Origin: Candidatus Woesearchaeota archaeon
GTDB lineage: Archaea > Nanobdellota > Nanobdellia > Woesearchaeales > GW2011-AR4
DNA length: 64,000 nt
Reading direction: 5' to 3'
Assembly: GCA_016185755.1 (NCBI GenBank)
Contig: JACPMX010000014.1
Coordinates: 117,868 to 181,867 of the forward strand
Shown: one piece after another, positions 3,887-20,168 of the stretch
How positions within the stretch are numbered: the stretch's first letter is position 1
Layout of the letters: each line of letters begins with the position of its first letter
Notes under the pieces: model-generated
Database searches by the model: none
The model's input: only the letters and a program-made list of their open reading frames with translations
What the model was told of the DNA's origin: nothing
Made by a program: the position numbers and the translations under genes

Positions 3887-3900
3887 TATAATGAATAAAT

Positions 3901-3972: not shown

Positions 3973-3996
3973 AATTTAACAAAACATAAAACAAAA

Positions 3997-4176
3997 ATGG
4001 CAAAGGAAGCAAAGAAAAAATTGTCTGGGAGATGGAAGCTGTACGAGAAGTCAGGAGACAAGATAACAAGGAAAAACAGGTCATGCCCCAAATGCGGCGA
4101 AGGCACTTTCATGGCAAAGCATGCAAACAGGTGGGCATGCGGCGCTTGCAAATACACTGAATTCCTGCAGAAATAA
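3997..4176 (+). CDS. rps27ae: 30S ribosomal protein S27ae (eS31) zinc-ribbon protein; not in supplied ORF track (59 aa)
   Basis: Translation MAKEAKKKLSGRWKLYEKSGDKITRKNRSCPKCGEGTFMAKHANRWACGACKYTEFLQK; CPKCG...CGAC zinc ribbon; canonical position after rps24e. Confidence 0.7.
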   Translation: MAKEAKKKLSGRWKLYEKSGDKITRKNRSCPKCGEGTFMAKHANRWACGACKYTEFLQK

Positions 4177-5064: not shown

Positions 5065-5085
5065 GAATTTGATTCAACTGCATAT

Positions 5086-5394
5086 TTAGCCGAACAAAGC
5101 GCCCAAGCCTGCAGCTGCCGCCTCTTCTGATTTCTTCTCTTCAGCTGCTTTCTTCTTCTCGTCCACTTTGTGCTCAGCCGGCGCTCCTGCGCTCGGGGCT
5201 GCCGCCGCAACCTGCGCTACAGCTGCCTTCTCAATAGCTTCTTCTATGTTGACTCCTTCCAAGGCTGCGACAAGTGCCTTTGCCCTTGCATCATCCACTT
5301 TCACATGGGCTGATTCCAGCACTTTCTTCACGTTCGCTTCATCTACTTTCTGTCCTGCCTTGTGAAGCAGCATAGCCGCGTACACATATTCCAT
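5086..5394 (-). CDS. rpl12: 50S ribosomal protein P1 (L12e)
   Basis: 102 aa; Ala-rich hinge and acidic C-terminus ending GLGALFG. Confidence 0.9.
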
Positions 5395-5419
5395 TTTTTA
5401 GTCCTCCGTTAAATTTATT

Positions 5420-5450
5420 TTAATTATTCTTTTTATTGGATTATTAGTCA
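5420..5450 (-). promoter_or_regulatory. Shared promoter-like box upstream of rpl12, also upstream of rpl10 at 6640-6672
   Basis: Minus sense AAAACATTGACTAATAATCCAATAA (upstream of rpl12) and AAAACATTAACAAAAAATCCAATAA (upstream of rpl10) are near-identical AT-rich boxes 30-80 nt before the start codons. Confidence 0.35.
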
Positions 5451-5475
5451 ATGTTTTCAATCGTTAATGAGGTTC

Positions 5476-6591
5476 TTAGTTATTGAATTTTTCTTTCTTA
5501 TCCTGTTCTTCAATCTCTTTTTTTTGCAAGTCTCTGGCTATCTTCTCCACTTCCTTTATTTCTCTTTGCTTTTCCCTCATTTTTATGTTTGCTTCCAGCT
5601 CTTCTCTTGTCGGGGCTTTTAAGTCAGATGACTCTTTTGTTTCAGATTTTGGTTCTGTTTCTTGTTTTGGCTCAGATTTTTCATCTGCTTTCTCATGCTT
5701 TGCTTCAAAAACCCGTATATTAGCTGTTCCTGCCAAGCTCTTCATCTGCATCTCTGCCTTTGCCAATAGTGAATCAATTATTCCCTTCTCTAAAATGTTC
5801 TGTGCAATTCCAAGCGCTTTTGCATCATTATGCGCTTTTCCCAGCAACGTGCTTATTGTACTTTTTGTAGGGTATGAGGCGTAGACTGCAAGGTTGAATG
5901 CCCATCTTGAGGCATTTGCCAGCCTCCCCATGTATTCCTTCTCATCAACTGACAAAACATCGCGCCCGTAAATAATCCCGTTCTCATAGACAGCAACCAA
6001 ATCCAGGCCGACTTCCATAGGCTGTATTCCAAGCCTTATCAGGATTTCAGCCACTTTCGGCTTTATTTTTTCCCCTGCCTTTACAACAACAGAGTCTTCC
6101 TTTATTGCAACTTTGCCACCCTCAACTCCCGACTTTATTCCTGCCAGGGCAAGCTCCCCTATAATCGGGCCAGGTGCAAATGAGGTTGCTCCCTTGTTTA
6201 CTATGATGTCTCTTGGAGCAGTCTGGCCGGCTTTCGCAGGAGCTGGCGATTTGCTTTTCTGCAGTGTGTTGCTTAATTTGAATGGGTTTTCCTTTGTGAA
6301 AATTAATGCAGGCATCCCGCCAAGGTGCGCTTCCAGGCTTTCAATTCCCTTCTTTTTTGCCTTTGTGTCCTCGATGGCCAGCTTTATCAGCCTTCTCTTG
6401 GTCATTGTCATGAGGAATTTTCCTCTTAGCTGCGCCCTCATTGTCTGCAGCTGCGGAGCAGGCAGGTTTTCCATGTTTACAACTGCAATTATGGGATTTT
6501 CATTAATCAGCCTGGCAAGCTTTGCTACAATTTCTTTCTTGTAGTCAGCTACATGCGCTTCCCTCTTTGTCTTGGTTATTGCTTCTGCCAT
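5476..6591 (-). CDS. rpl10: 50S ribosomal protein P0 (L10e / uL10)
   Basis: 371 aa; P0 N-domain plus long K/E-rich C-terminal extension; immediately upstream of rpl12. Confidence 0.9.
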   Translation of the reverse strand: MAEAITKTKREAHVADYKKEIVAKLARLINENPIIAVVNMENLPAPQLQTMRAQLRGKFLMTMTKRRLIKLAIEDTKAKKKGIESLEAHLGGMPALIFTKENPFKLSNTLQKSKSPAPAKAGQTAPRDIIVNKGATSFAPGPIIGELALAGIKSGVEGGKVAIKEDSVVVKAGEKIKPKVAEILIRLGIQPMEVGLDLVAVYENGIIYGRDVLSVDEKEYMGRLANASRWAFNLAVYASYPTKSTISTLLGKAHNDAKALGIAQNILEKGIIDSLLAKAEMQMKSLAGTANIRVFEAKHEKADEKSEPKQETEPKSETKESSDLKAPTREELEANIKMREKQREIKEVEKIARDLQKKEIEEQDKKEKFNN

Positions 6592-6686
6592 TTTGATTTT
6601 TTTAAATTTATTTTTCGTTATTGAGTTTTTTGTTGTTTTTAATTGAATTTATTTTATTGGATTTTTTGTTAATGTTTTTAATTTTT

Positions 6687-6733
6687 TAATCCGCCTACGG
6701 CGCATTTTAGGCTCGCTCATTAGCTCGCCTATT
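6687..6733 (-). repeat. Interspersed hairpin element, copy 3 (short form)
   Basis: Reverse complement AAATAGGCGAGCTAATGAGCGAGCCTAAAATG-CGCC GTA GGCG-GATTAAAA; the ATAGGCGAG box overlaps the rpl1 TAG stop codon. Confidence 0.5.
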
Positions 6734-7412
6734 TATTGGCCTCTTTTTCTATCTCCAGCTTTTCCCCTACCTTGACTGGCTTGCCCATTGTCAGCTTCAC
6801 ATAAATGTCCTTTATGTTGTGCTTTTCATTTGGCAGCGCATGGATCACCGAATTGTAGACGGTCAGCGCATTCTCCGCTATGTCGCTTGCATTCATGTCC
6901 TCTGTTCCAATCGGGACCTGTATCAAAGGCGCTGTCTTTGCGTTTGCCCTTACAGTTCTCTGCAGCTTTTCATACAAGGGCCTTAAGTTTGCGTTCGGCG
7001 CCACCACATTTCCAGACTTCGGGTTCGGCATCTTCCCTCTGGTGCCGAATATCCTTCCAAATGATGTTGCAACCTTCGGCATTATGTTTGCCTGCGCAAT
7101 GAAGAAGTCAAAGCTGTTTGCTATCTTTTTTGCCTCTTTCTTACCCTTGTGCCTCTCAAAATCATCAGACATTATCACAGAATCGCACACATTCTTTGCC
7201 TGCTCGGCAAGCTCTGCAGCCACTAAAGCGCATACCTTGACTTTTTTGCCCCTTGAATGCGGCAAAGTCACAAAAACATCCACCTGGTGCTCTGGCTTCT
7301 TCAGGTCAAGCCCCCTTAGGTTTATGATTAAGTCAAATGACTGCCTGAAATTCCTTTTATCAGAAATATCCTTTGCCTTTGCTATTGCAGCATTTATTTG
7401 CTCTTTGTCCAT
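6729..7412 (-). CDS. rpl1: 50S ribosomal protein L1
   Basis: 227 aa, uL1 family; rpl1-rpl10-rpl12 order is conserved. No rpl11 lies upstream. Confidence 0.9.
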   Translation of the reverse strand: MDKEQINAAIAKAKDISDKRNFRQSFDLIINLRGLDLKKPEHQVDVFVTLPHSRGKKVKVCALVAAELAEQAKNVCDSVIMSDDFERHKGKKEAKKIANSFDFFIAQANIMPKVATSFGRIFGTRGKMPNPKSGNVVAPNANLRPLYEKLQRTVRANAKTAPLIQVPIGTEDMNASDIAENALTVYNSVIHALPNEKHNIKDIYVKLTMGKPVKVGEKLEIEKEANK

Positions 7413-7552
7413 TTAAAGCCCTCCTACCGAAGTAGTTTGACGGGTAATGCGGATGGGATAGCTATAGGGTTTTTAAAGGTTACTGTGGTGATTTGGTGAT
7501 GTGTGATAAATGCCCCATAAAATTTATATTCAATTAAAATCATTATTTCAAA

Positions 7553-7819
7553 ATGCCGCACATCCTAGCAAAGCTTAAAGGAGTAAAGATAGAAGATATA
7601 AAGCCGCATTTAAAAAGAGATGCGCCTATCCATGCAAAGGAAGGATTGTTTCTTGAGCATTTATGGCAGAATGCAGACGATTCAAATGAAATCTTGTTTA
7701 TTTTCAAAACTAATGACCTGAACCATGCAAGACAGTTCATACAAAAAGTGCATTCAGAGGCATTGAAGGAAAATCCAAAAGCAAACCTGCCTCATATGAC
7801 TTTTCTGGAAGAGGAATAA
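7553..7819 (+). CDS. Small hypothetical protein, possibly a ferredoxin-like fold
   Basis: 88 aa, no confident family match. Confidence 0.3.
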   Translation: MPHILAKLKGVKIEDIKPHLKRDAPIHAKEGLFLEHLWQNADDSNEILFIFKTNDLNHARQFIQKVHSEALKENPKANLPHMTFLEEE

Positions 7820-7855
7820 ATAATTATTTATATTCACTCTTCAAGTAATTTATAA

Positions 7856-8080
7856 ATGAAAATCCCAAGAAATATTTCCGGAATGGAAGTTATAAAAGTC
7901 TTAGTAAAGCACTACGATTGGGAAGTTTATAGGCGGCAAGGCAGCCATGTTACTTTAAAGAAAAAATCAGAAACTGAAATATTAACGGTGCCACTCCATG
8001 CCAGCCTTGACGTAGGCACTTTTCTTGCTATTTTAAGAAAAGCCAACATCGAGAAAGAAGATTTCCTGAAGAAATTATAA
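7856..8080 (+). CDS. hicA: HicA-family mRNA interferase toxin
   Basis: 74 aa; pattern RRQGSHVTLKK...TVPLH typical of HicA (YcfA-like). Confidence 0.55.
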   Translation: MKIPRNISGMEVIKVLVKHYDWEVYRRQGSHVTLKKKSETEILTVPLHASLDVGTFLAILRKANIEKEDFLKKL

Positions 8081-8377
8081 AATGGGAATTCTGATTGGAG
8101 TCCTGATAATTTCGCTGTCCGGGACTTCCAATTTGTTGTTTTTTCTTACAACTCCCAATTTTTCCAATTCGTTGTCAAGAATTCCCAACTCACTTGCGCT
8201 TTTCATGTGCAAATTAATGGCTTCTGCTATGTTCCCCTTTGCCTCCCTCAAAGTCTTTCCCTGAGTAACAATATTCAAATCCAGGCATTCTGCCATGTAA
8301 CCGCTTTTAGTCTTTTTAACTACAAATGGAACAGACAATTCTAAATTCTCGCTTTTGTAATTGGCATTTCTTTTCAT
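8075..8377 (-). CDS. hicB: HicB-family antitoxin (UPF0150 domain)
   Basis: 100 aa; SGYMAECLDLNIVTQGKTLREAKGNIAEAINLHM resembles the HicB N-domain. Convergent with hicA and overlaps it by 6 nt. Confidence 0.55.
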   Translation of the reverse strand: MKRNANYKSENLELSVPFVVKKTKSGYMAECLDLNIVTQGKTLREAKGNIAEAINLHMKSASELGILDNELEKLGVVRKNNKLEVPDSEIIRTPIRIPIL

Positions 8378-8379
8378 AG

Positions 8380-8511
8380 CTTATCTAAGGTAACTCCTTT
8401 ATATTTAAACTTTGTGGCATTTAATCCCCCTGTAAACAGCCAGTCCATGCCACCATCCTCTCTTGCAATGAATCCGTCAAGGCTGCACGCAATGAATAGC
8501 CTGATTTTTCT
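8380..8511 (-). pseudogene. N-terminal fragment of a RibD-C/dihydrofolate-reductase-family gene
   Basis: Minus-strand translation MRKIRLFIACSLDGFIAREDGGMDWLF... matches the start of DHFR/RibD C-terminal-domain proteins. It ends after about 44 codons, with its stop overlapping the hicB start. Confidence 0.3.
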
Positions 8512-8721
8512 CATGGCATTAGCATGGTAAGGCAGAATAAAAGATTATCGTGGCATATTTCAATAATTCCACAACCAGCGCAAATCTTTAAAGTCCTAAA
8601 AAATGCTTGGTATTTTTGGGAACTTGAACTCTGTTCAAGTATTTGCTGGGCTTTGAAAATTCTTTGAATTTTCAAAACCTTTATAAACATAATTTATCCC
8701 TCTTTCCAAAGGGGGTGTTTT

Positions 8722-10617
8722 GTGGAACAAGCACAATTGCAGGATAACATAAAAAAAGCCGGCATTCTGGACAAGATAGATTCTCCTAAGGACATTAAAC
8801 TTCTCAGCAGAAAGCAGCTCAAAATGCTCGCAAGCGAAATAAGGCAAAGAATCCTGGAAGTAGTCTCAAAGAACGGAGGCCATCTTGGAGGCCCTTTAGG
8901 CGCAGTTGAGCTGACTTTGGCGGTTCATTGCATTTACAATGCCCCCCATGACAAGATAGTCATAGACACAGGCCATCAAAGCTACCCCCACAAGCTGATA
9001 ACAGGAAGAAGGGACAATTTCCATACTTTAAGGCAGTACAAGGGAGTCTGCGGCTTCTGCAATATTGAGGAGTCGGAATACGATGTATTCGGCGCAGGCC
9101 ACGCATCAACTGCAATTTCAGCAGCCTTGGGCATAGCAAAGGCAAGGGACTATAAGAAGGAAAAATACAAGGTAGTCTCAATAATCGGGGACGGGGCATT
9201 GACAGCAGGCCTCGCTTTTGAAGGCTTGAACAACGCAGGCGCATCAAAGACAGACATGCTTATCATACTCAATGACAACAGGATGTCGATTTCTCCAAAT
9301 GTAGGCGCGATATCAAACTATCTGAACAAGATTGTGCTTCATTCAGGCTATTTTGAATTAAGAAAGAAAACTGGAAATTTGCTTAAAAAAATCCCCGGAA
9401 TAGGAAAAGAAGGTGTTGAAAAGCTTAGCAGGGCAGAGGGAAAATTAAGGGTGCTCGGCACAGATGGAATTTTCTTTGAAAGCATGGGATTCCAGTACTT
9501 TGGGCCCATCGATGGGCATAATTTGGATGAATTGATTCCCGCATTGCAGAATGTAAAAAATCTTGAAGGCCCTGTCCTGCTCCATGTAAAGACGGAAAAG
9601 GGAAAAGGCTACTCATTTGCGGAAAAGGACCTTGACAAGTTTCATGGCATGTCGCCCTTTGACCCTGTAAACGGAAGCAAATATGTCACAACAACCAAGA
9701 TGACATGGACTGATGCATTTGCAAACGCATTGATAAGGATTGCGGAAGAAGACGAAAAGATTGTTGCCATAACAGCTGCAATGAAATCAGGCACCGGGCT
9801 GAACAAGTTTGAGAAGCATTTTCCTGAAAGGACGATTGATGTCGGGATTGCAGAGCAGCATGCCGTGACTTTTGCGGCAGGATTGGCAATTGCTGGAATG
9901 AGGCCTGTGTGCGCAATATACTCCACATTTTTGCAGAGGGCATATGACCAAATCATTCATGATGTTTGCCTTCAGAACCTCAATGTAATCTTTGCGCTTG
10001 ACAGGGCTGGCCTAGTAGGAGATGATGGCCCAACCCACAATGGGCCTTTTGACATCGCTTATTTCAGGCCCATACCGAACATAACCATTATGGTTCCAAA
10101 AGACGAGAATGAGCTGCAGCACATGCTTTACACTGCAACTAAAATAAAAGGGCCGAGCGCATTGAGATATCCAAGGGGAAATGGAATCGGCGTTGGCCTT
10201 GATCCTGAATTAAGGAAGCTTGAAGTCGGAAAAGGGGAAATCCTACAGGAAGGAAAAGACCTGCTTATTATAGGAATAGGCCCCATTCTTTACGATGCAA
10301 TGCAGGCAATTGACGAGCTGAAATGCAGCGCAGCAGTAATCAACGCAAGATTTGTCAAGCCTCTTGATGAAAATATGATTTTGAAATATGCGCGAAAGTT
10401 CAGGAATATAATGACCCTTGAGGAAGGGGTTTTGAGCGGAGGGTTTGGCTCTGCTGTTATGGAATTGCTCGAAGGCAGCGGAATAAAATCAAATGTAAAA
10501 AGGATTGGCATTCCCGATAATTTCATCGAGCACGGAAAGCAGGACATACAGAAAAAACTGGCGGGAATTGACAAGGAGAGCGTAAAAATTGCCATTAGCA
10601 GTTTATTGGTCAAATAG
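8722..10617 (+). CDS. dxs: 1-deoxy-D-xylulose-5-phosphate synthase (GTG start)
   Basis: 631 aa; TPP-dependent transketolase-like; GDG...N ThDP motif; first MEP-pathway enzyme. Confidence 0.9.
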   Translation: MEQAQLQDNIKKAGILDKIDSPKDIKLLSRKQLKMLASEIRQRILEVVSKNGGHLGGPLGAVELTLAVHCIYNAPHDKIVIDTGHQSYPHKLITGRRDNFHTLRQYKGVCGFCNIEESEYDVFGAGHASTAISAALGIAKARDYKKEKYKVVSIIGDGALTAGLAFEGLNNAGASKTDMLIILNDNRMSISPNVGAISNYLNKIVLHSGYFELRKKTGNLLKKIPGIGKEGVEKLSRAEGKLRVLGTDGIFFESMGFQYFGPIDGHNLDELIPALQNVKNLEGPVLLHVKTEKGKGYSFAEKDLDKFHGMSPFDPVNGSKYVTTTKMTWTDAFANALIRIAEEDEKIVAITAAMKSGTGLNKFEKHFPERTIDVGIAEQHAVTFAAGLAIAGMRPVCAIYSTFLQRAYDQIIHDVCLQNLNVIFALDRAGLVGDDGPTHNGPFDIAYFRPIPNITIMVPKDENELQHMLYTATKIKGPSALRYPRGNGIGVGLDPELRKLEVGKGEILQEGKDLLIIGIGPILYDAMQAIDELKCSAAVINARFVKPLDENMILKYARKFRNIMTLEEGVLSGGFGSAVMELLEGSGIKSNVKRIGIPDNFIEHGKQDIQKKLAGIDKESVKIAISSLLVK

Positions 10618-10751
10618 TGATTTTTTAAAATTATTTTATTTAATGGCAAAAGAGCTTAATGCGATGGGAAAGATAGAAATAAATCAAATAAAACCTAAAT
10701 TTTACATTAACTAAAACATTCAAAAATTAAATATAGAATAAAAACCAAAAA

Positions 10752-11822
10752 ATGATCCAGAATAACATCGGAAGGAGAAAATCCCGCAAAGTAAAGGTCG
10801 GCAAACTGTTCATTGGCGGAGATGCTCCCATAACCATCCAGTCAATGACCACGACAGACACAACTGATGTAAAGGCAACAATTGAGCAGATTCATGGTTT
10901 GGAGGAAGTTGGATGCGACATCGTAAGGGTATCCGCTCCTACAATGGAGGCTGCAAAGGCGTTAAAGGAAATCAAGGAAAATATAAGCATTCCTCTTGTT
11001 GTTGACATTCATTTTGACTACAGGATTGCCCTTGAGGCTGTCAAGAATGTTGACAAGCTGAGGATTAACCCCGGCAATATTGGAAATCCTGACAAGGTGC
11101 AGCAGGTTGTAAAGGCGTGCAAAGATTTTCAAGTCCCGATGAGGATTGGAGTCAATCTGGGCTCTTTGGAAAGAGATTTGTTTGACAAATACGGCTATTC
11201 TTCGGAGGCAATGGTTGAAAGCGCAATGCGCCATGTGAAAATCCTTGAGGAGCTTGATTTTTATGACACGATCGTTTCTTTGAAAGCATCTGATGTGCCA
11301 AGAATGGTGAAGGCATACAAATTGTTTGCAGAAAAAACTGATTATCCCCTGCACCTTGGTGTTACAGAAGCAGGCTCAAAATTGCCAGGCGCCATAAAAT
11401 CATCTATGGGGATGGGAATGCTTTTGTCAGAAGGGATTGGAGACACTTTAAGGGTTTCATTGTCAGAGGATCCAAAAGAAGAAGTCAAGGTCGGAAAGCA
11501 AATTTTAAGGAGCCTTGGATTGAGGAATGATGGAGTGCAGGTCACATCCTGTCCAACGTGCGCAAGGACAGAGATAGATGTAATCAAGCTGGTCGAGCAG
11601 CTTGAGAACGCAACTGAAAAAATAAAAAAGCCGGTGCATGTCGCAATCATGGGCTGCGCAGTCAACGGGCCGGGGGAGTCAAGAAAATCAGACATCGGAA
11701 TTGTAGGCGCGCCAGGAAACCATCTGCTTTACAAAGACGGCAAGATTGTTAAGAGAATAAATGATGATGAAATTTACGAAGTTCTTTTGAAGGAGATTAA
11801 TGAGAAAGCAAATGAATCGTAA
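10752..11822 (+). CDS. ispG: 4-hydroxy-3-methylbut-2-enyl diphosphate synthase (GcpE)
   Basis: 356 aa; GcpE family with C-terminal Cys ligands (CPTCART, GCAVNGPGE). Confidence 0.9.
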   Translation: MIQNNIGRRKSRKVKVGKLFIGGDAPITIQSMTTTDTTDVKATIEQIHGLEEVGCDIVRVSAPTMEAAKALKEIKENISIPLVVDIHFDYRIALEAVKNVDKLRINPGNIGNPDKVQQVVKACKDFQVPMRIGVNLGSLERDLFDKYGYSSEAMVESAMRHVKILEELDFYDTIVSLKASDVPRMVKAYKLFAEKTDYPLHLGVTEAGSKLPGAIKSSMGMGMLLSEGIGDTLRVSLSEDPKEEVKVGKQILRSLGLRNDGVQVTSCPTCARTEIDVIKLVEQLENATEKIKKPVHVAIMGCAVNGPGESRKSDIGIVGAPGNHLLYKDGKIVKRINDDEIYEVLLKEINEKANES

Positions 11823-12519
11823 AATTATACTTTTTTTGATATTGACTGTTTTTTTGATAAATATTGGAAATTCATTCGCTAAATCAAACGAATATTATAC
11901 TTGCGAATATTTCAATTCTGGTTTATGTATAGAAGTTTGGTTTAATACATCAATAAGTAATTTAACTGATAAACCTAGCGAATATGGGAAATTTCCATAT
12001 TACACCCAACAAGGAGACTATTTGTATATAGAAAAATTCATCGCAATTAATCATGGGGAAAAAATAAATAGCAGCACTACTTATACTTTAGATATATGGC
12101 CATTAGAATACAAGGGCATGGATGAGAGATTAACAAAATATGGACCTTATACCAATAATTATGGTAAAATTGATATCGAAATTCCTCCTTTAGCTAAAGG
12201 AGACAAGTTTGAATTAGATTATTTACAAAATAGTGTTTATATCAAAAAATTAAATGATCAACCAATTGGTAAATATTCTCATTGGTTTATAGAACTTTAT
12301 AAAGAAGGAGAATGGTTCATCGACGAGGATATTGCAGGAGAAATTGGTGGATATACCTCTATTTTTAATGGATTTAGAAGTCGAATCTTTCAAGTCAACC
12401 CTCCATTAGAGTTAGAAACATTTAGCGATGTAAGAAAACAAGTTAAGTATATCCTTCCTACATTTTTAGTTTCTGTAATAAGTTTAATTGTTTCTATATA
12501 TAGTTTAAGAAGAAGATGA
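11800..12519 (+). CDS. Secreted or surface protein with N-terminal signal/TM and C-terminal TM anchor
   Basis: 239 aa; AT-rich codon usage clearly lower in GC than the flanking MEP genes; overlaps ispG by 23 nt. Confidence 0.45.
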   Translation: MRKQMNRKIILFLILTVFLINIGNSFAKSNEYYTCEYFNSGLCIEVWFNTSISNLTDKPSEYGKFPYYTQQGDYLYIEKFIAINHGEKINSSTTYTLDIWPLEYKGMDERLTKYGPYTNNYGKIDIEIPPLAKGDKFELDYLQNSVYIKKLNDQPIGKYSHWFIELYKEGEWFIDEDIAGEIGGYTSIFNGFRSRIFQVNPPLELETFSDVRKQVKYILPTFLVSVISLIVSIYSLRRR

Positions 12520-12521
12520 AA

Positions 12522-12836
12522 TCAATTCCTTACAATAACTTTCTTCCTCTTATTCAGCGGCTCTATAACCAAAGTGTCGAACAAGTCAATCATCTTTCTG
12601 ACGAAAGGGCTTGATGTATTCAGCTTGTATAGCTTTGCATTGCCGATGTTCCTTGTTGGCTTTATTATCCCAAGCTCGACAAAATCGCTCCAAATCCTAA
12701 ATAAAGTGGTTCTTCCGATGCCGGCTCCCTCTGCAATGTCTGAAATAGAATAATCTAGCTCCCTGCCTTCTATCAAAAATTCCAAAACCTTGATTTTTGG
12801 TGTGTTATCAAAAATCTTAACCAATTTTGTCGTCAT
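12522..12836 (-). CDS. Winged-helix DNA-binding transcriptional regulator
   Basis: 104 aa; SISDIAEGAGIGRTTLFRIW helix-turn-helix segment. Confidence 0.5.
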   Translation of the reverse strand: MTTKLVKIFDNTPKIKVLEFLIEGRELDYSISDIAEGAGIGRTTLFRIWSDFVELGIIKPTRNIGNAKLYKLNTSSPFVRKMIDLFDTLVIEPLNKRKKVIVRN

Positions 12837-13043
12837 AGTATTATCTACTATTGGGAATATTCAAATATTTCTATTTTGCAAAGTATATTTCTGAGTATCA
12901 CTGGCCACTGGACATGGCTACGTGAACTATATAAATCAATAGATTTAACGCATTTAAAAAATAAAAGCCGCACAACTTGGCGGTACGGAAGCTTCAGAAC
13001 CTCAATAAATATGCTGGGCTATCAAGTATTTAAATTTTACTAT

Positions 13044-13156
13044 GCCGCGGTCGCATAACTTGGAAGTGCGGGAGCTTCAGAACCTCCTGTCCGAAAGGGC
13101 ATCTGGGTTCAAATCCTAAAAGGATTTGCTTTTGGGTGGAAATCCCAGCCGCGGCG
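13044..13156 (+). tRNA. tRNA-Leu(CAG), class II, with ~29-nt non-canonical intron in the T-loop
   Basis: Acceptor GCCGCGG/CCGCGGC; D arm CGCA/TGCG; anticodon stem-loop GGAGC-TTCAGAA-CCTCC; long variable arm GTCC-GAAA-GGGC. T arm is CTGGG-TTCAAAT...CCCAG, interrupted by TAAAAGGATTTGCTTTTGGGTGGAAATCC, whose own ends are complementary (GGATTT/AAATCC). Confidence 0.6.
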
Positions 13157-13236
13157 CTTATGTTCTACAAAAACTGCCTTTGCATTCAAAGGAAAGATTT
13201 ATAATCCAACTAAATGATACTTGCCTTGGGGGTTAC

Positions 13237-14400
13237 ATGAAACATCTATCCATTTTGGGAAGCACTGGCAGCATTGGCACCCAGACTCTTGATATTGCAA
13301 GGCAATTTCCGAATGAATTCAAGATCGTTGGACTGACTGCAAACAGGAATTCTGAATTGCTGTTAAAGCAGATAAAAGAATTCAAGCCAAAAGCTGTTGC
13401 GATAATGGACAAAAGCAAGGTTGATGATTTATTGAATTTTTCCTCGTGCCAGGTTTATTCAGGAATTGAAGGATTAAACAGGATTGCTTCATTGAGTGAA
13501 GCAGATACTGTTGTAAATGCACTGGTTGGAAGCATAGGAATCGAGCCGACGCACAATGCAATAAAATCAGGAAAAAACATTGCGCTTGCAAACAAGGAAA
13601 CGCTTGTGGCAGCAGGCTCCGTCATTATGGACGAAGTTAAGAAAAATAATGTGAATTTGATGCCGATTGATTCAGAGCATTCCGCAATTTTCCAGTGCCT
13701 CAATGGAGAAAATATAAAGGAAGTCAGCAAAATTACAATAACCTGTTCAGGAGGCCCGTTCAGGAACCATTCAAGAGAGCAAATGGAAAATGTTTCTTTG
13801 AAAGATGCACTGAAGCACCCGACATGGAACATGGGCAGCAAAATAACAATTGACTCTGCAACTTTGATGAACAAGGGATTTGAAGTCATTGAGGCGCATT
13901 GGCTGTATGATATGGACTATGAAAAGATAAAAGTCATAATCCATCCCCAAAGCATAGTCCATTCTTTGGTTGAATTTGTTGACCATTCGGTAATTGCGCA
14001 ATTGGGACTGCCGGACATGAAAATACCGATCCAATACGCATTGACCTATCCAAAGAGATTCCAAAATCTAAGCGCCCCATTGGACTTGGCAAAAATAAAA
14101 GCTCTTGAGTTCAGCGAGCCTGACTTTGAAAAGTTTCCATGCCTGAAATTTGCATATGAAGCCGGAGCAATCGGGGGGACTTTGCCTGCTGTCATGAACG
14201 CAGCAAATGAAATTGCAGTTCATGCATTCCTTGGGAATAAAATAAGGTTTTTGGACATACAAAGGCTTGTAAGAAAGCTGATGGACGGGCACAATTTGAT
14301 AAAAAGCCCCAGCCTTGGCAATATTCTTGAGACTGACAAAAAGACTAAAGAAGAAACATCTAAAATCATTGAAGAGGAGATTAGCATAAAGAATCAATAA
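13237..14400 (+). CDS. dxr: 1-deoxy-D-xylulose-5-phosphate reductoisomerase
   Basis: Starts MKHLSILGSTGSIGTQTLD (NADPH-binding motif); the supplied ORF begins earlier inside the tRNA. Confidence 0.9.
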   Translation: MKHLSILGSTGSIGTQTLDIARQFPNEFKIVGLTANRNSELLLKQIKEFKPKAVAIMDKSKVDDLLNFSSCQVYSGIEGLNRIASLSEADTVVNALVGSIGIEPTHNAIKSGKNIALANKETLVAAGSVIMDEVKKNNVNLMPIDSEHSAIFQCLNGENIKEVSKITITCSGGPFRNHSREQMENVSLKDALKHPTWNMGSKITIDSATLMNKGFEVIEAHWLYDMDYEKIKVIIHPQSIVHSLVEFVDHSVIAQLGLPDMKIPIQYALTYPKRFQNLSAPLDLAKIKALEFSEPDFEKFPCLKFAYEAGAIGGTLPAVMNAANEIAVHAFLGNKIRFLDIQRLVRKLMDGHNLIKSPSLGNILETDKKTKEETSKIIEEEISIKNQ

Positions 14401-14409
14401 TTTCTAAAA

Positions 14410-15591
14410 ATGAACTTTGCAATAATAGTTGCTGCGGGAAAGGGCAGGAGGATGGGAAAAAATGCAAACAAAGTTTTTTTGCCCCTGATGAGCAGGCCGA
14501 TGATTTGGCATGTTCTGGATATTTTCCACAGTTGCGGGAAAATCGATGAGATTATTGTAGTGGCTCAAAAGAGCGATTTTGAAAAAATCAGAGGGATTAA
14601 AAGCGAATACGGATTTGATAAAATAAAAAAAATTGTTGCAGGAGGAGAAGAAAGGCAGGATTCTGTCTATAACGGGCTGATGTCAATAAAGGCAAAAGAA
14701 GATGACATTGTCTTGGTACATAACGGAAGCAACCCTTTAGTCCTTGAAAATGAAATTGATGAATGCATCAATGCCGCAATAAAGTTTGATGCTGCTGTTG
14801 CAGGATTTCCGCTGAAAGACACAATCAAAAAGGCAAGCGGTGATTTTGTGGAAAAGACAGTAGACAGAAAAGACATTTTCCAAGTGCAAACGCCCCAGGC
14901 TGTGAAATACGGATTATTTGCTGAAGCATTCAAAAACGCCAAAAAGAAAAAACTTAAAGCAACCGATGATGTTTCCCTTGTCGAGGCACTTGGCAGGAAA
15001 GTAAAGATTGTCCGATGCTCTTATGAAAATATAAAAGTAACCACGCAGGACGACCTGAGAATTGCAGAGGGAATTTTGATGAGCAGGAATAAAACGAATA
15101 AGGATTCTAAGATTGGATTTGGGCATGACAGCCACAGGTTTTCAGCAAGCAGGAGCAGAAAGCTTGTTTTAGGAGGGTATATCATGCCTAATGAAACCGG
15201 GCTGGAGGCAAACTCTGACGGAGACCTTATTTTGCATGCCTTGTTCAACGCGATAAGCTCTGCAATCGGCATGAAGTCCCTTGGACACTATGCGGACCCT
15301 ATGCTTGAAAAAGGGGTTACTGACAGCAAGGAATATCTTCAGGTTATCCTAAAAAAATTAAACGAAAAAAACATGGGAATAAACAACATAAGCATTTCAA
15401 TTGAGGCAAAAAGGCCGAGGCTTGATGACAGCACTGACAAGATCATTCAATCTTTATCAAAAATACTGGCAATAAGCAAGGAAAGAATAGGGATTACCTG
15501 CACTTCAGGGGAGGGGCTGACGCCTTTTGGAAGAGGCGAAGGAATGCAGTGCTTTGCTGTTGTTTCTTTATGCTCTAGTCCCAATCAATAA
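14410..15591 (+). CDS. ispDF: Bifunctional IspD/IspF (MEP cytidylyltransferase + MEcPP synthase)
   Basis: 393 aa; N-terminal IIVAAGKGRRMG (IspD) and C-terminal GFGHDSHRF (IspF). Confidence 0.9.
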   Translation: MNFAIIVAAGKGRRMGKNANKVFLPLMSRPMIWHVLDIFHSCGKIDEIIVVAQKSDFEKIRGIKSEYGFDKIKKIVAGGEERQDSVYNGLMSIKAKEDDIVLVHNGSNPLVLENEIDECINAAIKFDAAVAGFPLKDTIKKASGDFVEKTVDRKDIFQVQTPQAVKYGLFAEAFKNAKKKKLKATDDVSLVEALGRKVKIVRCSYENIKVTTQDDLRIAEGILMSRNKTNKDSKIGFGHDSHRFSASRSRKLVLGGYIMPNETGLEANSDGDLILHALFNAISSAIGMKSLGHYADPMLEKGVTDSKEYLQVILKKLNEKNMGINNISISIEAKRPRLDDSTDKIIQSLSKILAISKERIGITCTSGEGLTPFGRGEGMQCFAVVSLCSSPNQ

Positions 15592-16419
15592 ATTATTGAA
15601 CGGGGATACATTTGGGTGATAAAGTCTTACAATTCTTGCGTTATAACCCATTGCCTTCAGATTTTCAGCCCTCACATAGTCAATTATTTCCATGGCTTTT
15701 CTTGCTACCGGGCGATATCCATCAGACTGTTGCATATGCCCTACTGCTCTTGCTAAGACGGTAAATAATTTTTCACTTAGCTTTATCCCTGAAGCTAAGG
15801 TCGACATGTCAAAATCCATTTGCCCGTGATGGCATGGTACAACAGCAAATAAATCCGGCAAACTGCTTTGTAATTGGGCGTACCTGCCAATTAAATCGGG
15901 AAGGCTTCCACAGCAATATAAGCCAAGATATGCCACTTTACCATCTGCGCGAAGTATTTCGGGTGATGGTTTTTTGTCTCTTAGTGTTGCCAAATCGAAT
16001 TTGACAAATGGAATATCATATTTCCGAATACATGGGAAGTATCTTTCAAGCAAATAGCTCCTAGGGAACCTAACGTCAACTCTTGTTACAGGTGCCCCAG
16101 CAAGGTGAGCGATTGCATAAGCCAAGAAACTTTTGCCAGAGCACCAATCAACATAATTAACATCAGGCTCCAGAAAACCGGCATTATCGATTTCACTCAG
16201 TAATGGCTTCAATATCCCCAACTTTATTTTATGGACAGTTGTTTTTTGTTCTCTAGCGAGGCTATCCACTCCCTCTTGGAGATGAGAATCCTCAAATAGC
16301 TTTTCTACCCTTTTTGAAGGTTTTGTTTCCTGCAACTCTTCACCAATTTTCCATCTTTCATGCAAACCACTGATTAGCTTGATTCTTTCTTCCAATACTT
16401 GGGATTTAGACATACTCAT
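15568..16419 (-). CDS. Putative SAM-dependent methyltransferase (Methyltransf_32-like)
   Basis: 283 aa; VDWCSGKSFLAYAIA motif-I-like segment and conserved Cys/His cluster. Antisense to the MEP genes and overlaps the ispDF 3' end by 24 nt. Confidence 0.45.
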   Translation of the reverse strand: MSMSKSQVLEERIKLISGLHERWKIGEELQETKPSKRVEKLFEDSHLQEGVDSLAREQKTTVHKIKLGILKPLLSEIDNAGFLEPDVNYVDWCSGKSFLAYAIAHLAGAPVTRVDVRFPRSYLLERYFPCIRKYDIPFVKFDLATLRDKKPSPEILRADGKVAYLGLYCCGSLPDLIGRYAQLQSSLPDLFAVVPCHHGQMDFDMSTLASGIKLSEKLFTVLARAVGHMQQSDGYRPVARKAMEIIDYVRAENLKAMGYNARIVRLYHPNVSPFNNLLIGTRA

Positions 16420-16499
16420 AAGAACTATGAGTCATTTAAAAAGTTTATGAACCCCAAAAATTAGCAAAGATTATATATGAAAATAATAATCTATATGTT

Positions 16500-17348
16500 A
16501 TGGCAATAAGCTCATACGCAAAAGTCAACCTTTACCTGAAGATAGGCAAGAAGCTCGGCTCAGGCTACCACAACATACAGTCAGTTATGCAGAAGATAGA
16601 GCTGAGCGACAGCATATCCATAGAGCCGATAAACGAGGATAAAATAATAGTGGAATCCACAAACAAGGAGCTTGAAAACGAGAACAATCTCGCCTACAAG
16701 GTTGCCATGCTTCTCAAGAAGAAATTCAAGGTAAGGCACGGAGTCAAAATTTTCATAGAGAAAAACGTGCCTCTTGAAGCAGGCTTAGGAGGGGGCTCAA
16801 GCAATGCAGCAACTGTCCTGATGAGCCTCAACAAGCTGTGGGGCCTTAAGCTCAAGGAAAAGCAGCTTATAGGGCTTGCTGCCCAGATTGGCTCTGACGT
16901 GCCTTTCTTCATTGGCGATAACGCAGCTCTCGTGGAGGGAATCGGCGACAGGATAAAGCGCATAAGGAAGTCGTTCAGCATCAATATAGTCCTCATAAAC
17001 CCGGGCTTCAGGGTCTCGACAAAATGGGCATATTCAGCTTTTGACAGGCAAAAACCAAAGATAAAGGCAAATGCCGATATTAAAAATCTGGTGAAGGCCA
17101 TAGAAAAAAAAGACATAAAAGAGATAGCAAGCAACCTGCACAATGATTTTGAGACTATTGTGACCAAAAAATACAAGGTGATAAACGACATCAGGACAAA
17201 TCTCCTCAGAAACGATGCCCTGAATGCCTGCGTCTCTGGCTCCGGTCCCACTGTCTTCGGCATCTTCAACAGCATCTATGAGGCAAGAGAAGCCTTTTTC
17301 AAGATTCAGTATGATTACCCGTTCGTGTTTTTGACAAAGACTATATAA
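16500..17348 (+). CDS. ispE: 4-diphosphocytidyl-2-C-methyl-D-erythritol kinase
   Basis: 282 aa; GHMP kinase motif PLEAGLGGGSSNAA. Confidence 0.85.
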   Translation: MAISSYAKVNLYLKIGKKLGSGYHNIQSVMQKIELSDSISIEPINEDKIIVESTNKELENENNLAYKVAMLLKKKFKVRHGVKIFIEKNVPLEAGLGGGSSNAATVLMSLNKLWGLKLKEKQLIGLAAQIGSDVPFFIGDNAALVEGIGDRIKRIRKSFSINIVLINPGFRVSTKWAYSAFDRQKPKIKANADIKNLVKAIEKKDIKEIASNLHNDFETIVTKKYKVINDIRTNLLRNDALNACVSGSGPTVFGIFNSIYEAREAFFKIQYDYPFVFLTKTI

Positions 17349-17454
17349 AGAAAATAAGCCATGATTATATGGGGGCTGTTCATTTTTTTTGGTTTGAAAT
17401 ATTTTTATTGGGCATGCCCTACTGGTCAAGGCAAGAATAACAAAAACATAAAAA

Positions 17455-18378
17455 ATGGTCGACATAAAAGTTGCAAGGCACGCAGGCTTCTGCTTTGGAG
17501 TGAAGAAAGCCATAGAGATTGCAGAGGAAGTGGCGCAAAGCAATCCTGAAAGCACATACGTGCTGGGCCAGCTTGTGCACAACGAGAAAGTCATAAAGAC
17601 GCTTGAAGGCAAGGGGATCATTTTTGTAGAGGATATTCATGAAATTCCGCAGAATGCAATAACTGTTTTAAGGGCCCATGGAGAGCCCGGAACAACTTAC
17701 GAAATTCTTGGGCAAAAGTCAATAACAAAAGGCAAAAACCTGAACGATGCGACATGCCCCCTTGTCACTTTGGTGCATAATGTTGCAATCAAACTGAAGA
17801 GCAATGGCTATGAAGTCATAATCTTCGGCAAGCACAACCATCCCGAGGCAATAGGCACAAGCTACCATCTCAGGGGAAATGGAACTTTCATTGTAGAGCA
17901 TGAGGATGACTACCGGCAGGTCATTGACCACATCAAAAACAATAATTTTGGAAAAATAGCAATAATCTCCCAGACAACAATGTCAGTTCTTGGATATAAA
18001 AAGCTGATTGAAAATATAAATTCTAATTTTGGCAATAAATTTATTGAAATCCCGCTTGCGCTGAAAAACCTTGATGTGAAGTACGGCTTTGTGGATACAA
18101 TCTGCAACCCCACAAAGCAGCGCCAATCCGATATTGACGAGCTTGCCGGTGACCGCGACATGATCATAGTCATTGGGGGCAAAAACTCAAGCAACTCAAA
18201 GGAGCTTTATGCAAAGGCAAAAGAATACGGGATAGACTCATATTTCATCCAGTCGGCAGAGCAGATCCAAAAAGAATGGCTTAATGGAAAGCAAAGGATT
18301 GGAGTGACAGCGGGAGCCTCAACTCCTGATTACCTGATTGATGAGGCTGTTGAAAGGATAAAAGAAATCACTCGCTGA
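17455..18378 (+). CDS. ispH: 4-hydroxy-3-methylbut-2-enyl diphosphate reductase (LytB)
   Basis: 307 aa; LytB family with conserved Cys near N-terminus, middle and C-terminus. Confidence 0.9.
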   Translation: MVDIKVARHAGFCFGVKKAIEIAEEVAQSNPESTYVLGQLVHNEKVIKTLEGKGIIFVEDIHEIPQNAITVLRAHGEPGTTYEILGQKSITKGKNLNDATCPLVTLVHNVAIKLKSNGYEVIIFGKHNHPEAIGTSYHLRGNGTFIVEHEDDYRQVIDHIKNNNFGKIAIISQTTMSVLGYKKLIENINSNFGNKFIEIPLALKNLDVKYGFVDTICNPTKQRQSDIDELAGDRDMIIVIGGKNSSNSKELYAKAKEYGIDSYFIQSAEQIQKEWLNGKQRIGVTAGASTPDYLIDEAVERIKEITR

Positions 18379-18823
18379 AGAATCCGGCAGTTTTTGTGTC
18401 GAACTTCCAGTCTTCTGATACTCTTCCGCTCCTTTTGTAGTATTTTGTAAGCCGGTTTATCTTTGACTCTGTAAGCATAAGGCCTCTTGCAGCAGTCTCG
18501 TCATGCCTGTTTGCCTCGATGTGCTTCATTATGGCTGCATACCTCCTGAACAACGCAACCAAATCCTCCGGTATCTCCGGCATAATCTTTTTTTCCTTCA
18601 GTATTGCGCTTATTGATTTGCCGCAAAGGGCGAGAACGCTCGGAATGCCATAGACATCCCTCAGCATGATGCCTATCTGTGAGTTGTTTTTGCCGTCTTT
18701 TGCAAGCTTCGCTATCAGAAGCTCGACTTCTTTTGCCTTGTACCTTATCCATGAAGGCGAGGTCTTCTTTGCAGGCTTCTTGGAGCCGTGCTTTCCCCTC
18801 TTCCTGGAGTGCATTCGTGCCAT
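18368..18823 (-). CDS. rps15: 30S ribosomal protein S15 (uS15/S13e)
   Basis: Real start MARMHSRKRGKHGS...; archaeal uS15. The supplied ORF extends upstream into the leader. Confidence 0.8.
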   Translation of the reverse strand: MARMHSRKRGKHGSKKPAKKTSPSWIRYKAKEVELLIAKLAKDGKNNSQIGIMLRDVYGIPSVLALCGKSISAILKEKKIMPEIPEDLVALFRRYAAIMKHIEANRHDETAARGLMLTESKINRLTKYYKRSGRVSEDWKFDTKTAGFFSE

Positions 18824-18854
18824 TTTTGTTATTTTATTTTGATTTTTATTTAAT

Positions 18855-18927
18855 TTCAATCTGTTGCTTCGCAACATTAATTTGTGCTCGGGCTCACTTT
18901 CCTGCCATATCGTTCGCCCTCGCCTAT
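18855..18927 (-). repeat. Interspersed ~70-nt hairpin element, copy 4 (in rps15 5' leader region)
   Basis: Reverse complement ATAGGCGAGGGCGAACGATATGGCAGGAAAGTGAGCCCGAGCACAAATTAATG-GTTGC GAA GCAAC-AGATTGAAATT; ends about 40 nt before the rps15 ATG. Confidence 0.6.
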
Positions 18928-19028
18928 ACATTAAAAACTGGAAGAACAAAGTTTGTCATCCAGCATAGCCAAGCTGTTATACCGGGCTATCTTTCAATTA
19001 AATGGAATATTGGATGATTTATAAATCT

Positions 19029-19319
19029 TTACTTTGCATCCTCAATTCGTATAATGTGGTAGCCGAACTGCGTCTTTACAGGACCTAGTATGGCTCCCTT
19101 GCTGCCGTTAAAGCATGCATTCTCAAACTCCCTGACCATTTGGCCTTTCCTGAACCATCCCAAATTCCCTCCTTTTTTCCGGGAAGGGCACAATGATTTT
19201 TCCATGGCCACATCTTCAAATTTCTTTCCATGGGTTACATCATAGAGCGCCACGTTGGCATCCTGCTCTGTCTTCAGCAGAATATGCGATGCATTCACTT
19301 GGCTTGGCATTTTTGACAT
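19029..19319 (-). CDS. Parvulin-type peptidyl-prolyl cis-trans isomerase (PpiC)
   Basis: 97 aa from MSKMPSQVNASHILL...GGNLGWFRKGQMV...GYHIIRIE. The supplied 150-aa ORF runs upstream through a tRNA gene and is over-extended. Confidence 0.75.
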   Translation of the reverse strand: MSKMPSQVNASHILLKTEQDANVALYDVTHGKKFEDVAMEKSLCPSRKKGGNLGWFRKGQMVREFENACFNGSKGAILGPVKTQFGYHIIRIEDAK

Positions 19320-19324
19320 TCCTC

Positions 19325-19355
19325 GGAACGATGAAAAATAGCCCCGGGCAGATTC
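19325..19355 (-). repeat. 31-bp direct repeat duplicating the 3' end plus trailer of tRNA-Gln
   Basis: ggaacgatgaaaaatagccccgggcagattc at 19325-19355 is identical to 19413-19443, which spans the tRNA-Gln T-arm/acceptor 3' strand and 14 nt of trailer. Confidence 0.7.
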
Positions 19356-19426
19356 CCACCAGCCTTTTAGGAAAAGCCTGGGGAAAACTATGCAATGTGG
19401 CATAAATGCCACGGAACGATGAAAAA

Positions 19427-19515
19427 TAGCCCCGGGCAGATTCGAACTGCCGTCAGAGCCTTTCCATTGCACTGCAACCAAAGGGCCCTATGCTTGACCG
19501 CTACACCACGGGGCT
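19427..19515 (-). tRNA. tRNA-Gln(UUG) with 16-nt canonical (37/38) intron
   Basis: Minus-strand acceptor AGCCCCG/CGGGGCT; anticodon stem-loop GGGCC-CUUUGG[intron TTGCAGTGCAATGGAA]A-GGCTC; T arm GGCAG-TTCGAAT-CTGCC; discriminator A. Confidence 0.6.
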
Positions 19516-19610
19516 GCATTCAGGGAATTCCCTGTTTTGTATATAAAAGTTGTTGTTGAAGTAAATAAAAAAATTAATAAATAACACCCAACCCCAAAAA
19601 TGGGATTAAT

Positions 19611-20168
19611 TTGGATAAGCTTTTTTTGATTGGTTCTGGTGCCAGGATAATGAATGCAAGCCCACAGGAGCTCGCAGTAAAAGTTGAAGAAAATTTCGGC
19701 AGAAAGGCAGGATTCTCAGGACCAATAAACCCCTATGGCAACGGGTTTGTGAATGGCAATCCATACGTCTATGCCATAAATCATAAAAGGTTTAAGGCAT
19801 CGGTCAGGGTATATCCTGATTCAGGTCCAAGTAATGGAAATCAGCATTCAAGGTATTGTGGAGTTTATGTAAGCAGCGGCGACGAAGGCAGGAATCTAAG
19901 GATTTTATATGCAATTGCTGATGCCTTGCTATTTGATGATTTATACAGGACATTTGGTGAAGGAGTTATGGTCAGGCCCTTAACTGATGATTCTTTTCCA
20001 GAAGCATATATTTTAAATGGCGGAAGCTCTAATGGACAATTTCCAAATAATGCTGTGCCCTTAGGCGTATTTGCAGCTTCCCTGGAAGATATTGCAAGAT
20101 TCCATAAATTTATAAGAGAAGGAAGAACCAATTCTACTTCCAAACCCCCAATCCCTCTTCCTCCATGA
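19611..20168 (+). CDS. Hypothetical G/N/P-rich protein
   Basis: 185 aa, no recognisable domain; 3' end overlaps the convergent dph5 by 35 nt. Confidence 0.35.
   Translation: MDKLFLIGSGARIMNASPQELAVKVEENFGRKAGFSGPINPYGNGFVNGNPYVYAINHKRFKASVRVYPDSGPSNGNQHSRYCGVYVSSGDEGRNLRILYAIADALLFDDLYRTFGEGVMVRPLTDDSFPEAYILNGGSSNGQFPNNAVPLGVFAASLEDIARFHKFIREGRTNSTSKPPIPLPP

Follow-up and report, generated by a model that had tools for sequence, protein, structure and literature searches.

A complete bacterial-type methylerythritol phosphate (MEP, also called DOXP) pathway of isoprenoid synthesis is encoded in a 64,000-nucleotide stretch of DNA from a Candidatus Woesearchaeota archaeon (assembly GCA_016185755.1, contig JACPMX010000014.1, positions 117,868 to 181,867; the whole stretch is called the window here). 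Six co-oriented genes on the plus strand within positions 8722-18378 (9.7 kb) account for all of the seven activities. The mevalonate (MVA) pathway is the textbook route of Archaea, and the MEP pathway is that of Bacteria. From the sequence comparisons, it is very probable that the cluster is functional, that it descends from an old transfer out of Bacteria, and that it has since been inherited vertically in the Woesearchaeales with later insertions.

The open reading frames (ORFs) of the MEP genes were scored with Pfam and NCBIfam, and the motifs were read from the translations and from alignments to solved structures. A sequence-only reading of the window had claimed a complete, co-oriented cluster of dxs, ispG, dxr, a fused ispDF, ispE, and ispH. 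The claim held in full. Each activity scored well above its NCBIfam equivalog cut-off (Table 1), and the interval claimed runs exactly from the dxs start to the ispH stop. GenBank already lists their products as MEP enzymes. Dxs can be aligned end to end with PDB 2O1S and 7BZX and has the motifs GHQ, GDG...NDN, AEQH, DRAG..GPTHNG, and PRG. In the alignment of IspG with the Aquifex aeolicus structure 3NOY, CPTC and GC.VNGPGE are kept with the three cluster cysteines and the glutamate. The dxr ORF spans 13126-14400, and its true start is the ATG at 13237, ahead of the GSTGSIG motif, which is followed by DSEHSA, SGGPFR, HPTWNMG, and SATLMNKGFEVIEA. In the IspDF polypeptide, which is fused in every archaeal relative, the IspD half has GKGRRMG..NK and NIKVTT, and the IspF half has GHDSH, SDGDLILHA, and SGEGLTPFGRGEG. 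IspE has KVNLYL, GYH, GLGGGSSNAA, and GSDVPFF. IspH compared with 3DNF conserves the three cysteines and HN, AHG, NHPE, QTT, NSSNS, and ASTP, and the IspH proteins of the window's clade carry an insertion of about 25 residues relative to that of A. aeolicus. All of the catalytic and cofactor motifs checked were intact. Their roles, as established for these enzymes, are thiamine diphosphate and Mg binding in Dxs, NADPH and metal binding in Dxr, Zn binding in IspF, and the three Fe-S cysteines of IspG and IspH.

Judged from its genes, the pathway is complete and intact, and it is very probably functional. Dxs would convert pyruvate and glyceraldehyde-3-phosphate to 1-deoxy-D-xylulose 5-phosphate (DXP), and Dxr would convert DXP to MEP. 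The fused IspDF together with IspE would carry MEP through 4-diphosphocytidyl-methylerythritol (CDP-ME) and its phosphate (CDP-MEP) to methylerythritol cyclodiphosphate (MEcPP). Finally, the [4Fe-4S] enzymes IspG and IspH would reduce MEcPP through hydroxymethylbutenyl diphosphate (HMBPP) to isopentenyl diphosphate (IPP) as well as dimethylallyl diphosphate (DMAPP).

The host is a tiny groundwater archaeon, a DPANN member of the order Woesearchaeales, and its family is probably GW2011-AR4. Two window proteins, IspH and the product of the antisense ORF 15568-16419 (HYX08_05925), match NCBI proteins of "Candidatus Woesearchaeota archaeon" with 100% identity, and the nearest loci are syntenic metagenome-assembled genomes (MAGs) of Woesearchaeota. 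Of the ten Dxs loci that come closest in the GTDB species set (L001-L010, 75-82% identity), most belong to Woesearchaeota MAGs, and the rest carry unreliable bin labels. Castelle et al. 2021 classify L002 and L003 in their genome table as Nanoarchaeota; Woesearchaeales; f__GW2011-AR4, and L011, whose Dxs is 58% identical to that of the window, as f__UBA11716 (PMC8204110). The flanks of the cluster had been described as archaeal, and every flanking gene checked from that list was correct. Upstream are RNase P RNA, a THUMP methyltransferase, a PIN protein, Rpb7/RpoE, Spt4, S24e, S27ae, P1, P0, and L1. Downstream are S15, parvulin, FtsZ, an ATP-dependent DNA ligase, CDC48, GatD, and GatE, and then the A-type ATPase genes.

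The cluster occupies the same chromosomal site in related genomes. The order THUMP-PIN-RpoE-DUF7121-P0-L1-(dxs-ispG-dxr-ispDF-ispE-ispH)-S15 recurs in L001, L003, L004, L009, L011, and L084-L086, and L087 and L088 show the ispH/S15 side of the conserved junction. P0 and L1 lie upstream of dxs in L001-L004, L009, L011, L084, and L085, and S15 lies downstream of ispH in L001, L004, L011, and L084-L088. The L1/dxs and ispH/S15 junctions are found again in ten or more independent assemblies of Woesearchaeales, which belong to two families and were obtained from differing sites and with differing pipelines. Between the window and L011, the identities are 38-69% for the MEP proteins and 44-75% for the flanking housekeeping proteins. 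The divergence of the cluster and its flanks is therefore alike, as would be expected if they had been inherited together ever since the two families shared an ancestor. The cluster has very probably been passed on vertically as a compact unit at a fixed site between the ribosomal genes L1 and S15. Its GC content (0.40-0.45) is indistinguishable from that of the remaining window, its relative synonymous codon usage correlates at r = 0.951 against a within-window null of 0.963 ± 0.012, and its tetranucleotide profile is host-like (r = 0.966). The dN/dS values of all six genes against L001, L003, and L004 are 0.04-0.10, with dS saturated, and the constraint on the MEP genes is at least as strong as that on the flanking P0 and L1. 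More than 120 protein clusters with at least 73% identity to the window IspH are found in public metagenome data. The MEP genes are fully adapted to the composition of the host and are under strong purifying selection.

Bacterial ancestry of the pathway is supported by the Dxs comparison. Beyond the Woesearchaeal clade, the nearest Dxs proteins come from Nitrospirota, Thermodesulfobacteriota, Syntrophales, and Desulfotomaculia at 52-56% identity, and no clear single donor was seen among these nearest outside sequences. In a neighbour-joining tree of 81 Dxs proteins, the window and L001-L010 formed a clan in 200 out of 200 bootstraps, and the clan including L011 and L014 was obtained in 182 out of 200. 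The neighbours of L014, the sister of L011 in this tree, are MutL and oxidoreductases and do not settle its archaeal status. An old horizontal transfer from Bacteria into the ancestor of at least two Woesearchaeales families would explain this distribution. The IspH clade of the window is isolated: across the representatives of 50%-identity clusters, identity starts at 66%, falls to 47%, and goes on down to about 40%. The search for close IspH homologues was filled by the Woesearchaeal clade, and no donor was visible in it. The nearest outside relative is the IspH of L091, which groups with that of the window in 78 out of 100 bootstraps. In L091, another archaeal contig, ispG-ispDF-ispE-ispH (6908-11065) stand without adjacent dxs or dxr at a different chromosomal site, beside the genes for Sec61-beta, NAC, deoxyhypusine synthase, and RNase P p30; a primase gene is on this contig too.

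Could a bacterial MEP segment have been joined to an archaeal contig by an error of assembly or binning? The bin labels of cluster-bearing contigs are indeed untrustworthy in this group. L008 (LBZW01000026.1) is filed under Candidatus Nomurabacteria, and several of L005, L006, L009, L010, and L014 were deposited as "uncultured Methanosarcinales". The bacterial label of L008 is weightless because its 6-kb contig holds the cluster alone. Such an error does not agree with the recurrence of the archaeal junctions in the independent assemblies, nor with the low identity to the nearest bacterial Dxs. The sequence-only reading had itself named a chimera as a concern and a comparison of GC, codon usage, and tetranucleotides as the check. 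The comparison revealed no break at the cluster borders, and together with the recurrent junctions it dispels the concern. The contig is not chimeric, and the probability left for an artefact is negligible. The objection that the genes are pseudo-enzymes decaying after the transfer is just as improbable, since the frames are intact, the equivalog cut-offs are passed, every motif checked is present, the dN/dS values are low, and close homologues of the window IspH are numerous in metagenomes; nothing was found in its favour.

A more serious alternative is that the cluster was built within the archaeal lineage by several transfers or replacements. Among the 69 nearest bacterial dxs loci, ispA lies upstream of dxs, with ispH nearby in 17 and dxr nearby in one; none has the archaeal gene order with ispG, dxr, ispDF, and ispE alongside. 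The partial cluster of L091 and its IspH grouping also fit a mosaic, and so does the discordance of L011, whose Dxs groups with that of the window and whose IspH does not. On the other hand, the gene order and the chromosomal position are identical in two families, so that any mosaicism either predates their split or arose by replacement in place. The IspDF fusion is common to all of the archaeal versions, and neighbour-joining on saturated distances of about 1.0 has little power. With simple trees and distances close to saturation, a mosaic history is treated as a possibility only, and we consider it to be clearly the less probable course of events. The split signal of IspH and Dxs may mean that one family had its ispH replaced in place. 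The earlier claim of a wholesale acquisition from Bacteria is thus upheld for the bacterial ancestry by the Dxs neighbours, and not for a single event, because of the gene orders and the discordant IspH. Of the phylogenies that had been proposed as its check, those of Dxs and IspH were built; L011, of family UBA11716, is in the clan of the window in the former and apart from it in the latter. It could also be argued that the pathway is real and yet redundant or specialised, with the mevalonate route kept or lipids scavenged from a host. MEP products would then serve mainly non-membrane isoprenoids (dolichol-type carriers, quinones, or tRNA prenylation), or DXP would serve cofactors. The window is without genes for prenyl chains and ether bonds, as this would predict, and many DPANN archaea are reported to be without full lipid synthesis (PMC10134863). 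The strong constraint, however, extends beyond dxs to all seven steps, the window has CarS, two CDP-alcohol transferases, and phosphatidylserine decarboxylase, and the cluster of L011 is contiguous with lipid genes, as described below. A 2024 survey in mBio of DPANN from oxygen-deficient zones also reports the MEP pathway for MAGs of Woesearchaeota and Nanoarchaeota, and the MVA pathway for other DPANN lineages (PMC10936187). Redundancy or specialisation, with either of these uses, is therefore judged to be unlikely. Several points nevertheless speak against the explanation that we prefer, namely a functional pathway acquired from Bacteria long ago and inherited vertically. The trees are neighbour-joining trees with bootstraps on limited samples. 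The L011 IspH (16044-16862) grouped with the window IspH in only 27 out of 200 and 0 out of 100 bootstraps. No polyprenyl synthase, geranylgeranylglyceryl phosphate (GGGP) or digeranylgeranylglyceryl phosphate (DGGGP) synthase, or glycerol-1-phosphate dehydrogenase is present in the window, and a ferredoxin or flavodoxin partner for IspG and IspH was not identified near the cluster.

The use of the products for archaeal lipids is suggested by both the window and its relative. The sequence-only reading had reported a CDP-archaeol synthase, and the CarS match was confirmed together with head-group enzymes in a block at 56753-61126, which is 38 kb from the MEP cluster. In L011, the cluster runs at 16862-19918 into a polyprenyl synthase, a UbiA prenyltransferase, and an antisense geranylgeranyl reductase, and then into S15. 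No homologue of UbiA or of the geranylgeranyl reductase was found in the window either. Because the window is without the chain and ether-bond genes, the link to membrane lipids is drawn from L011 and from the literature. We infer that MEP-derived IPP and DMAPP may feed the prenyl chains of archaeal ether lipids. No mevalonate-pathway gene (HMG-CoA reductase, mevalonate kinase, or isopentenyl phosphate kinase/decarboxylase) was present among the annotated ORFs of the window.

The extra genes in the cluster are best understood as later, lineage-specific insertions, of which a SAM-dependent methyltransferase would have become a stable resident between ispDF and ispE. The spacing of ispG and dxr is 5-25 bp in L003, L004, L006, L008, and the out-family L011, and that of ispDF and ispE is 29-118 bp in L003, L006, and L011. 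These tight junctions indicate that the contiguous cluster is ancestral and that the lodged genes came later. The suggestion that the lodged genes and the tRNA reflect stepwise assembly or insertion is accordingly retained for insertion and dropped for stepwise assembly. Judged from the loci compared, the ispG-dxr junction is an insertion hot spot. In the window, it is 1.4 kb long with an AT-rich ORF, a helix-turn-helix (HTH) gene, a partial tRNA copy, and tRNA-Leu(CAG). The protein of the AT-rich ORF begins with a signal-like segment and ends in a hydrophobic anchor; it matched no Pfam or NCBIfam family and had no homologue in any related locus, and on this basis it is a lineage-specific insertion. 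The HTH gene is the sole shared insert, with homologues of 80-83% identity at the ispG-dxr junction of L001 and L009 and a 24-residue remnant in L005. In L005, the same junction (3475-7885) holds 4.7 kb with a 1087-residue subtilisin-like secreted protease, a methyltransferase fragment, and a nucleotidyltransferase-like ORF, which marks the junction as a recurrent insertion site.

A tRNA-Leu with a partial duplicate had been noticed inside the cluster, and both were verified. The unedited tRNA-Leu was missed by Rfam and by ARAGORN with and without the intron option, because its intron lies in the T arm; ARAGORN called it once 27-31 nt were removed. Its fold has a z-score of –3.5 with a closed acceptor stem. 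The partial copy stands about 40 nt upstream of it, and the two share the 13-mer GCTTCAGAACCTC, whose count is exactly two where chance would give 0.1. Neither the tRNA-Leu nor its copy is present in the related loci, and no link of the copy to an integrated element was found. An Rfam match to "CRISPR-DR63" at 13106-13141 is merely the intron hairpin of this tRNA, and the SNORD and lncRNA matches of Rfam are sub-threshold chance matches. The intron-bearing tRNAs reported elsewhere in the window are tRNA-Gln(UUG) and tRNA-Arg(CCU), and the intron of the latter is placed like that of tRNA-Leu.

The antisense ORF between ispDF and ispE had been regarded as an unrelated passenger. It proved instead to be a conserved and clade-restricted resident of exactly this position. 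Its family has 13 clusters (47-100% identity) in a database of 5.8 billion proteins, with 56 invariant columns, and by this conservation it is a real gene. The genomic context could be read for five lineages, and in each of them the gene sits antisense between ispDF and ispE, where it overlaps the 3' end of ispDF. It is absent from L001, L003, L004, L006, and L011, and no remnant was detected in relatives lacking it (for example L001 and L004), even at E < 1. Carriers and non-carriers are interleaved by IspH distance. Assignment to the TRM13 tRNA 2'-O-methyltransferases (PF05206) was not supported: the match had 23.9 bits, below the gathering score of 26, and covered the C-terminal 40 residues only, and the matches of the homologues were faint. 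Fold searches gave only the generic class-I methyltransferase fold. Because the ispDF-ispE position is its sole location in the lineages read, a functional tie to the MEP pathway is conceivable, through methylation of a substrate or regulation of ispDF, although we regard it as rather improbable. If true, either an MEP intermediate or a prenyl diphosphate could be the substrate that the enzyme methylates, with methylated isoprenoid lipids as the outcome, or ispDF could be regulated through the convergent, overlapping transcription of the gene. The analysis yields one new point of some interest, which is the exclusive association of this family with the cluster. In L084-L086, contigs of another Woesearchaeal lineage, a CMAS-like SAM methyltransferase stands co-oriented between dxr and ispDF inside the cluster, a 172-residue ORF lies between ispG and dxr, and a LAGLIDADG ORF lies beyond S15 (in L084, for example, these extra genes are at 12003-12875, 14065-14583, and 6231-6917).

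Table 1. Features of the window with their positions, strands and supporting matches
Feature	Positions	Strand	Support
Archaeal RNase P RNA	37-367	-	71 bits vs Rfam gathering score 84
Upstream anchor, P0 (5476-6591) and L1 (6729-7412)	5476-7412	-	Pfam Ribosomal_L10 with RL10P_insert (archaeal insertion domain), Ribosomal_L1
dxs, 1-deoxy-D-xylulose-5-phosphate synthase, 631 aa	8722-10617	+	TIGR00204, 844.8 bits vs cut-off 466
ispG (gcpE), HMBPP synthase, 356 aa	10752-11822	+	NF001540, 503.2 vs 345; TIGR00612 also above cut-off
AT-rich ORF, 239 aa	11800-12519	+	GC 0.28, GC3 0.20 vs 0.40-0.50 for other genes
Small HTH protein, 104 aa, divergent from dxr	12522-12836	-	Weak HTH_IclR, HTH_7, HTH_Crp_2 matches, E ~1e-4
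Partial tRNA-Leu copy (D arm and anticodon arm only)	12968-13003	+	86% over 35 nt to 13052-13086
tRNA-Leu(CAG), ~29-nt non-canonical T-arm intron	13044-13156	+	ARAGORN call after intron removal
dxr (ispC), DXP reductoisomerase, 387 aa from ATG 13237	13237-14400	+	NF009114, 552.9 vs 461; TIGR00243 also above cut-off
ispDF fusion, MEP cytidylyltransferase and MEcPP synthase, 393 aa	14410-15591	+	TIGR00453 (IspD), 215.9 vs 181.3; TIGR00151 (IspF), 141.1 vs 116.5
Class-I SAM methyltransferase-like gene (TRM13-like)	15568-16419	-	Convergent with ispDF, 3' ends overlap by 24 nt
ispE, CDP-ME kinase, 282 aa	16500-17348	+	TIGR00154, 251.9 vs 138.7
ispH (lytB), HMBPP reductase, 307 aa	17455-18378	+	TIGR00216, 263.9 vs 187.9
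Downstream anchor, S15 (archaeal/eukaryotic, S13/S15 N-terminal type)	18368-18949	-	NF006331, 182.2 vs cut-off 154; Pfam Ribosomal_S13_N
tRNA-Gln(UUG)	19427-19515	-	Canonical 16-nt intron after position 37; mislabelled by ARAGORN as unknown/stop tRNA
tRNA-Arg(CCU)	36535-36640	-	~30-nt non-canonical T-arm intron
PAP2-CarS fusion (CDP-archaeol synthase, N-terminal PAP2 phosphatase domain)	56753-57778	-	PF01864 CarS-like, 117 bits vs 22
Two CDP-alcohol phosphatidyltransferases	57772-58884; 58881-60005	+; -	Pfam CDP-OH_P_transf (PF01066)
ORF with RrnaAD-like match, not counted as head-group gene	59956-60513	-	
Phosphatidylserine decarboxylase	60506-61126	-	Pfam PS_Dcarbxylase

Further features of the window lie outside the cluster. 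The RNase P RNA was missed by the default Rfam scan because its score is below the gathering score, and it is syntenic with clear RNase P matches in L001, L003, L004, and L009. In the S15 ORF, the family match begins at residue 43. The A-type ATPase genes downstream encode the six subunits I/E/C/A/B/D, and genes for two H+-pyrophosphatases and phosphoglycerate kinase (PGK) also lie downstream. Between the A and B genes lies an AT-rich (GC 0.33, GC3 0.26) class-I glutamine amidotransferase ORF (43928-44644, plus strand), which looks like a recent insertion into the operon. The two membrane H+-pyrophosphatase genes are full-length and lie within 7 kb (46828-48780 and 51359-53437, plus strand), and they flank PGK and an unannotated antisense ORF of 429 residues. 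A second, short asparaginase-like ORF of 162 residues (32425-32913, plus strand) stands between GatD and GatE within AT-rich sequence (GC 0.33) and may be a partial duplicate of GatD.

The enzymes were compared with known systems. The cluster resembles the canonical bacterial MEP pathway of E. coli and A. aeolicus in its seven enzyme families and catalytic motifs, and its best structure matches are bacterial or plastid. It differs in its archaeal host, in the single co-oriented 9.7-kb cluster, and in the IspH insertion. In the nearest bacterial loci, by contrast, dxs stands beside ispA and, apart from the single case of dxr, at most ispH too. The fused IspDF resembles the bifunctional IspDF of Campylobacter jejuni (PDB 1W55; NF006899) in having an N-terminal IspD and a C-terminal IspF in one polypeptide. 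However, it lies outside the NF006899 equivalog, since it scores 263.6 bits against a cut-off of 417, and its IspD half is closer to the monofunctional Bacillus IspD (E = 2e-49) than to 1W55 (E = 2e-26). The comparison suggests that it is a separate or very divergent fusion. With the archaeal (modified) mevalonate pathway, the cluster shares the products IPP and DMAPP and the presumed use in ether lipids, and the MEP enzymes are unrelated to those of that pathway. An archaeon that uses the bacterial isoprenoid route cuts across the textbook split, and it bears on the lipid-divide debate and on the extent to which core metabolism can be replaced by gene transfer in the reduced DPANN genomes.

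The closest known system is the MEP clade of the Woesearchaeota itself. A co-located MEP pathway in a Woesearchaeota clade was described by Castelle & Banfield 2018, as cited in PMC8204110, and the MEP pathway in Woesearchaeota was also reported by Hoshino & Gaucher 2018 (PMC6107057). According to Castelle et al. 2021, the pathway is widespread, with its genes co-located, among 52 Woesearchaeota genomes that form a monophyletic clade, and their genome list includes two close relatives of the window (PMC8204110). In a few recent reviews, the MEP pathway is still called "almost absent in archaea" (PMC11052028), although the Woesearchaeal case is established. The bacterial-type MEP pathway in Woesearchaeota is real and already known, because it has been in print since 2018. 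Its significance has likewise been recognised in print for exactly this clade, and the window is one more deposited example with comparative detail, such as the age, the amelioration, and the strong constraint of its MEP genes. Lineage, pathway, co-location, and interpretation are all shared with the clade. A UbiA prenyltransferase near the MEP genes is a frequent and not a defining feature of it, and some of its genomes have bacterial fatty-acid and glycerol-3-phosphate dehydrogenase genes (PMC8204110). The window has neither a nearby UbiA gene nor any Fab or glycerol-3-phosphate dehydrogenase match in its 64 kb; the UbiA gene near the cluster of L011 agrees with the description in that paper. 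The details added here to the known clade are the fixed site between L1 and S15, the secondary insertions at the ispG-dxr junction, and the resident antisense methyltransferase.

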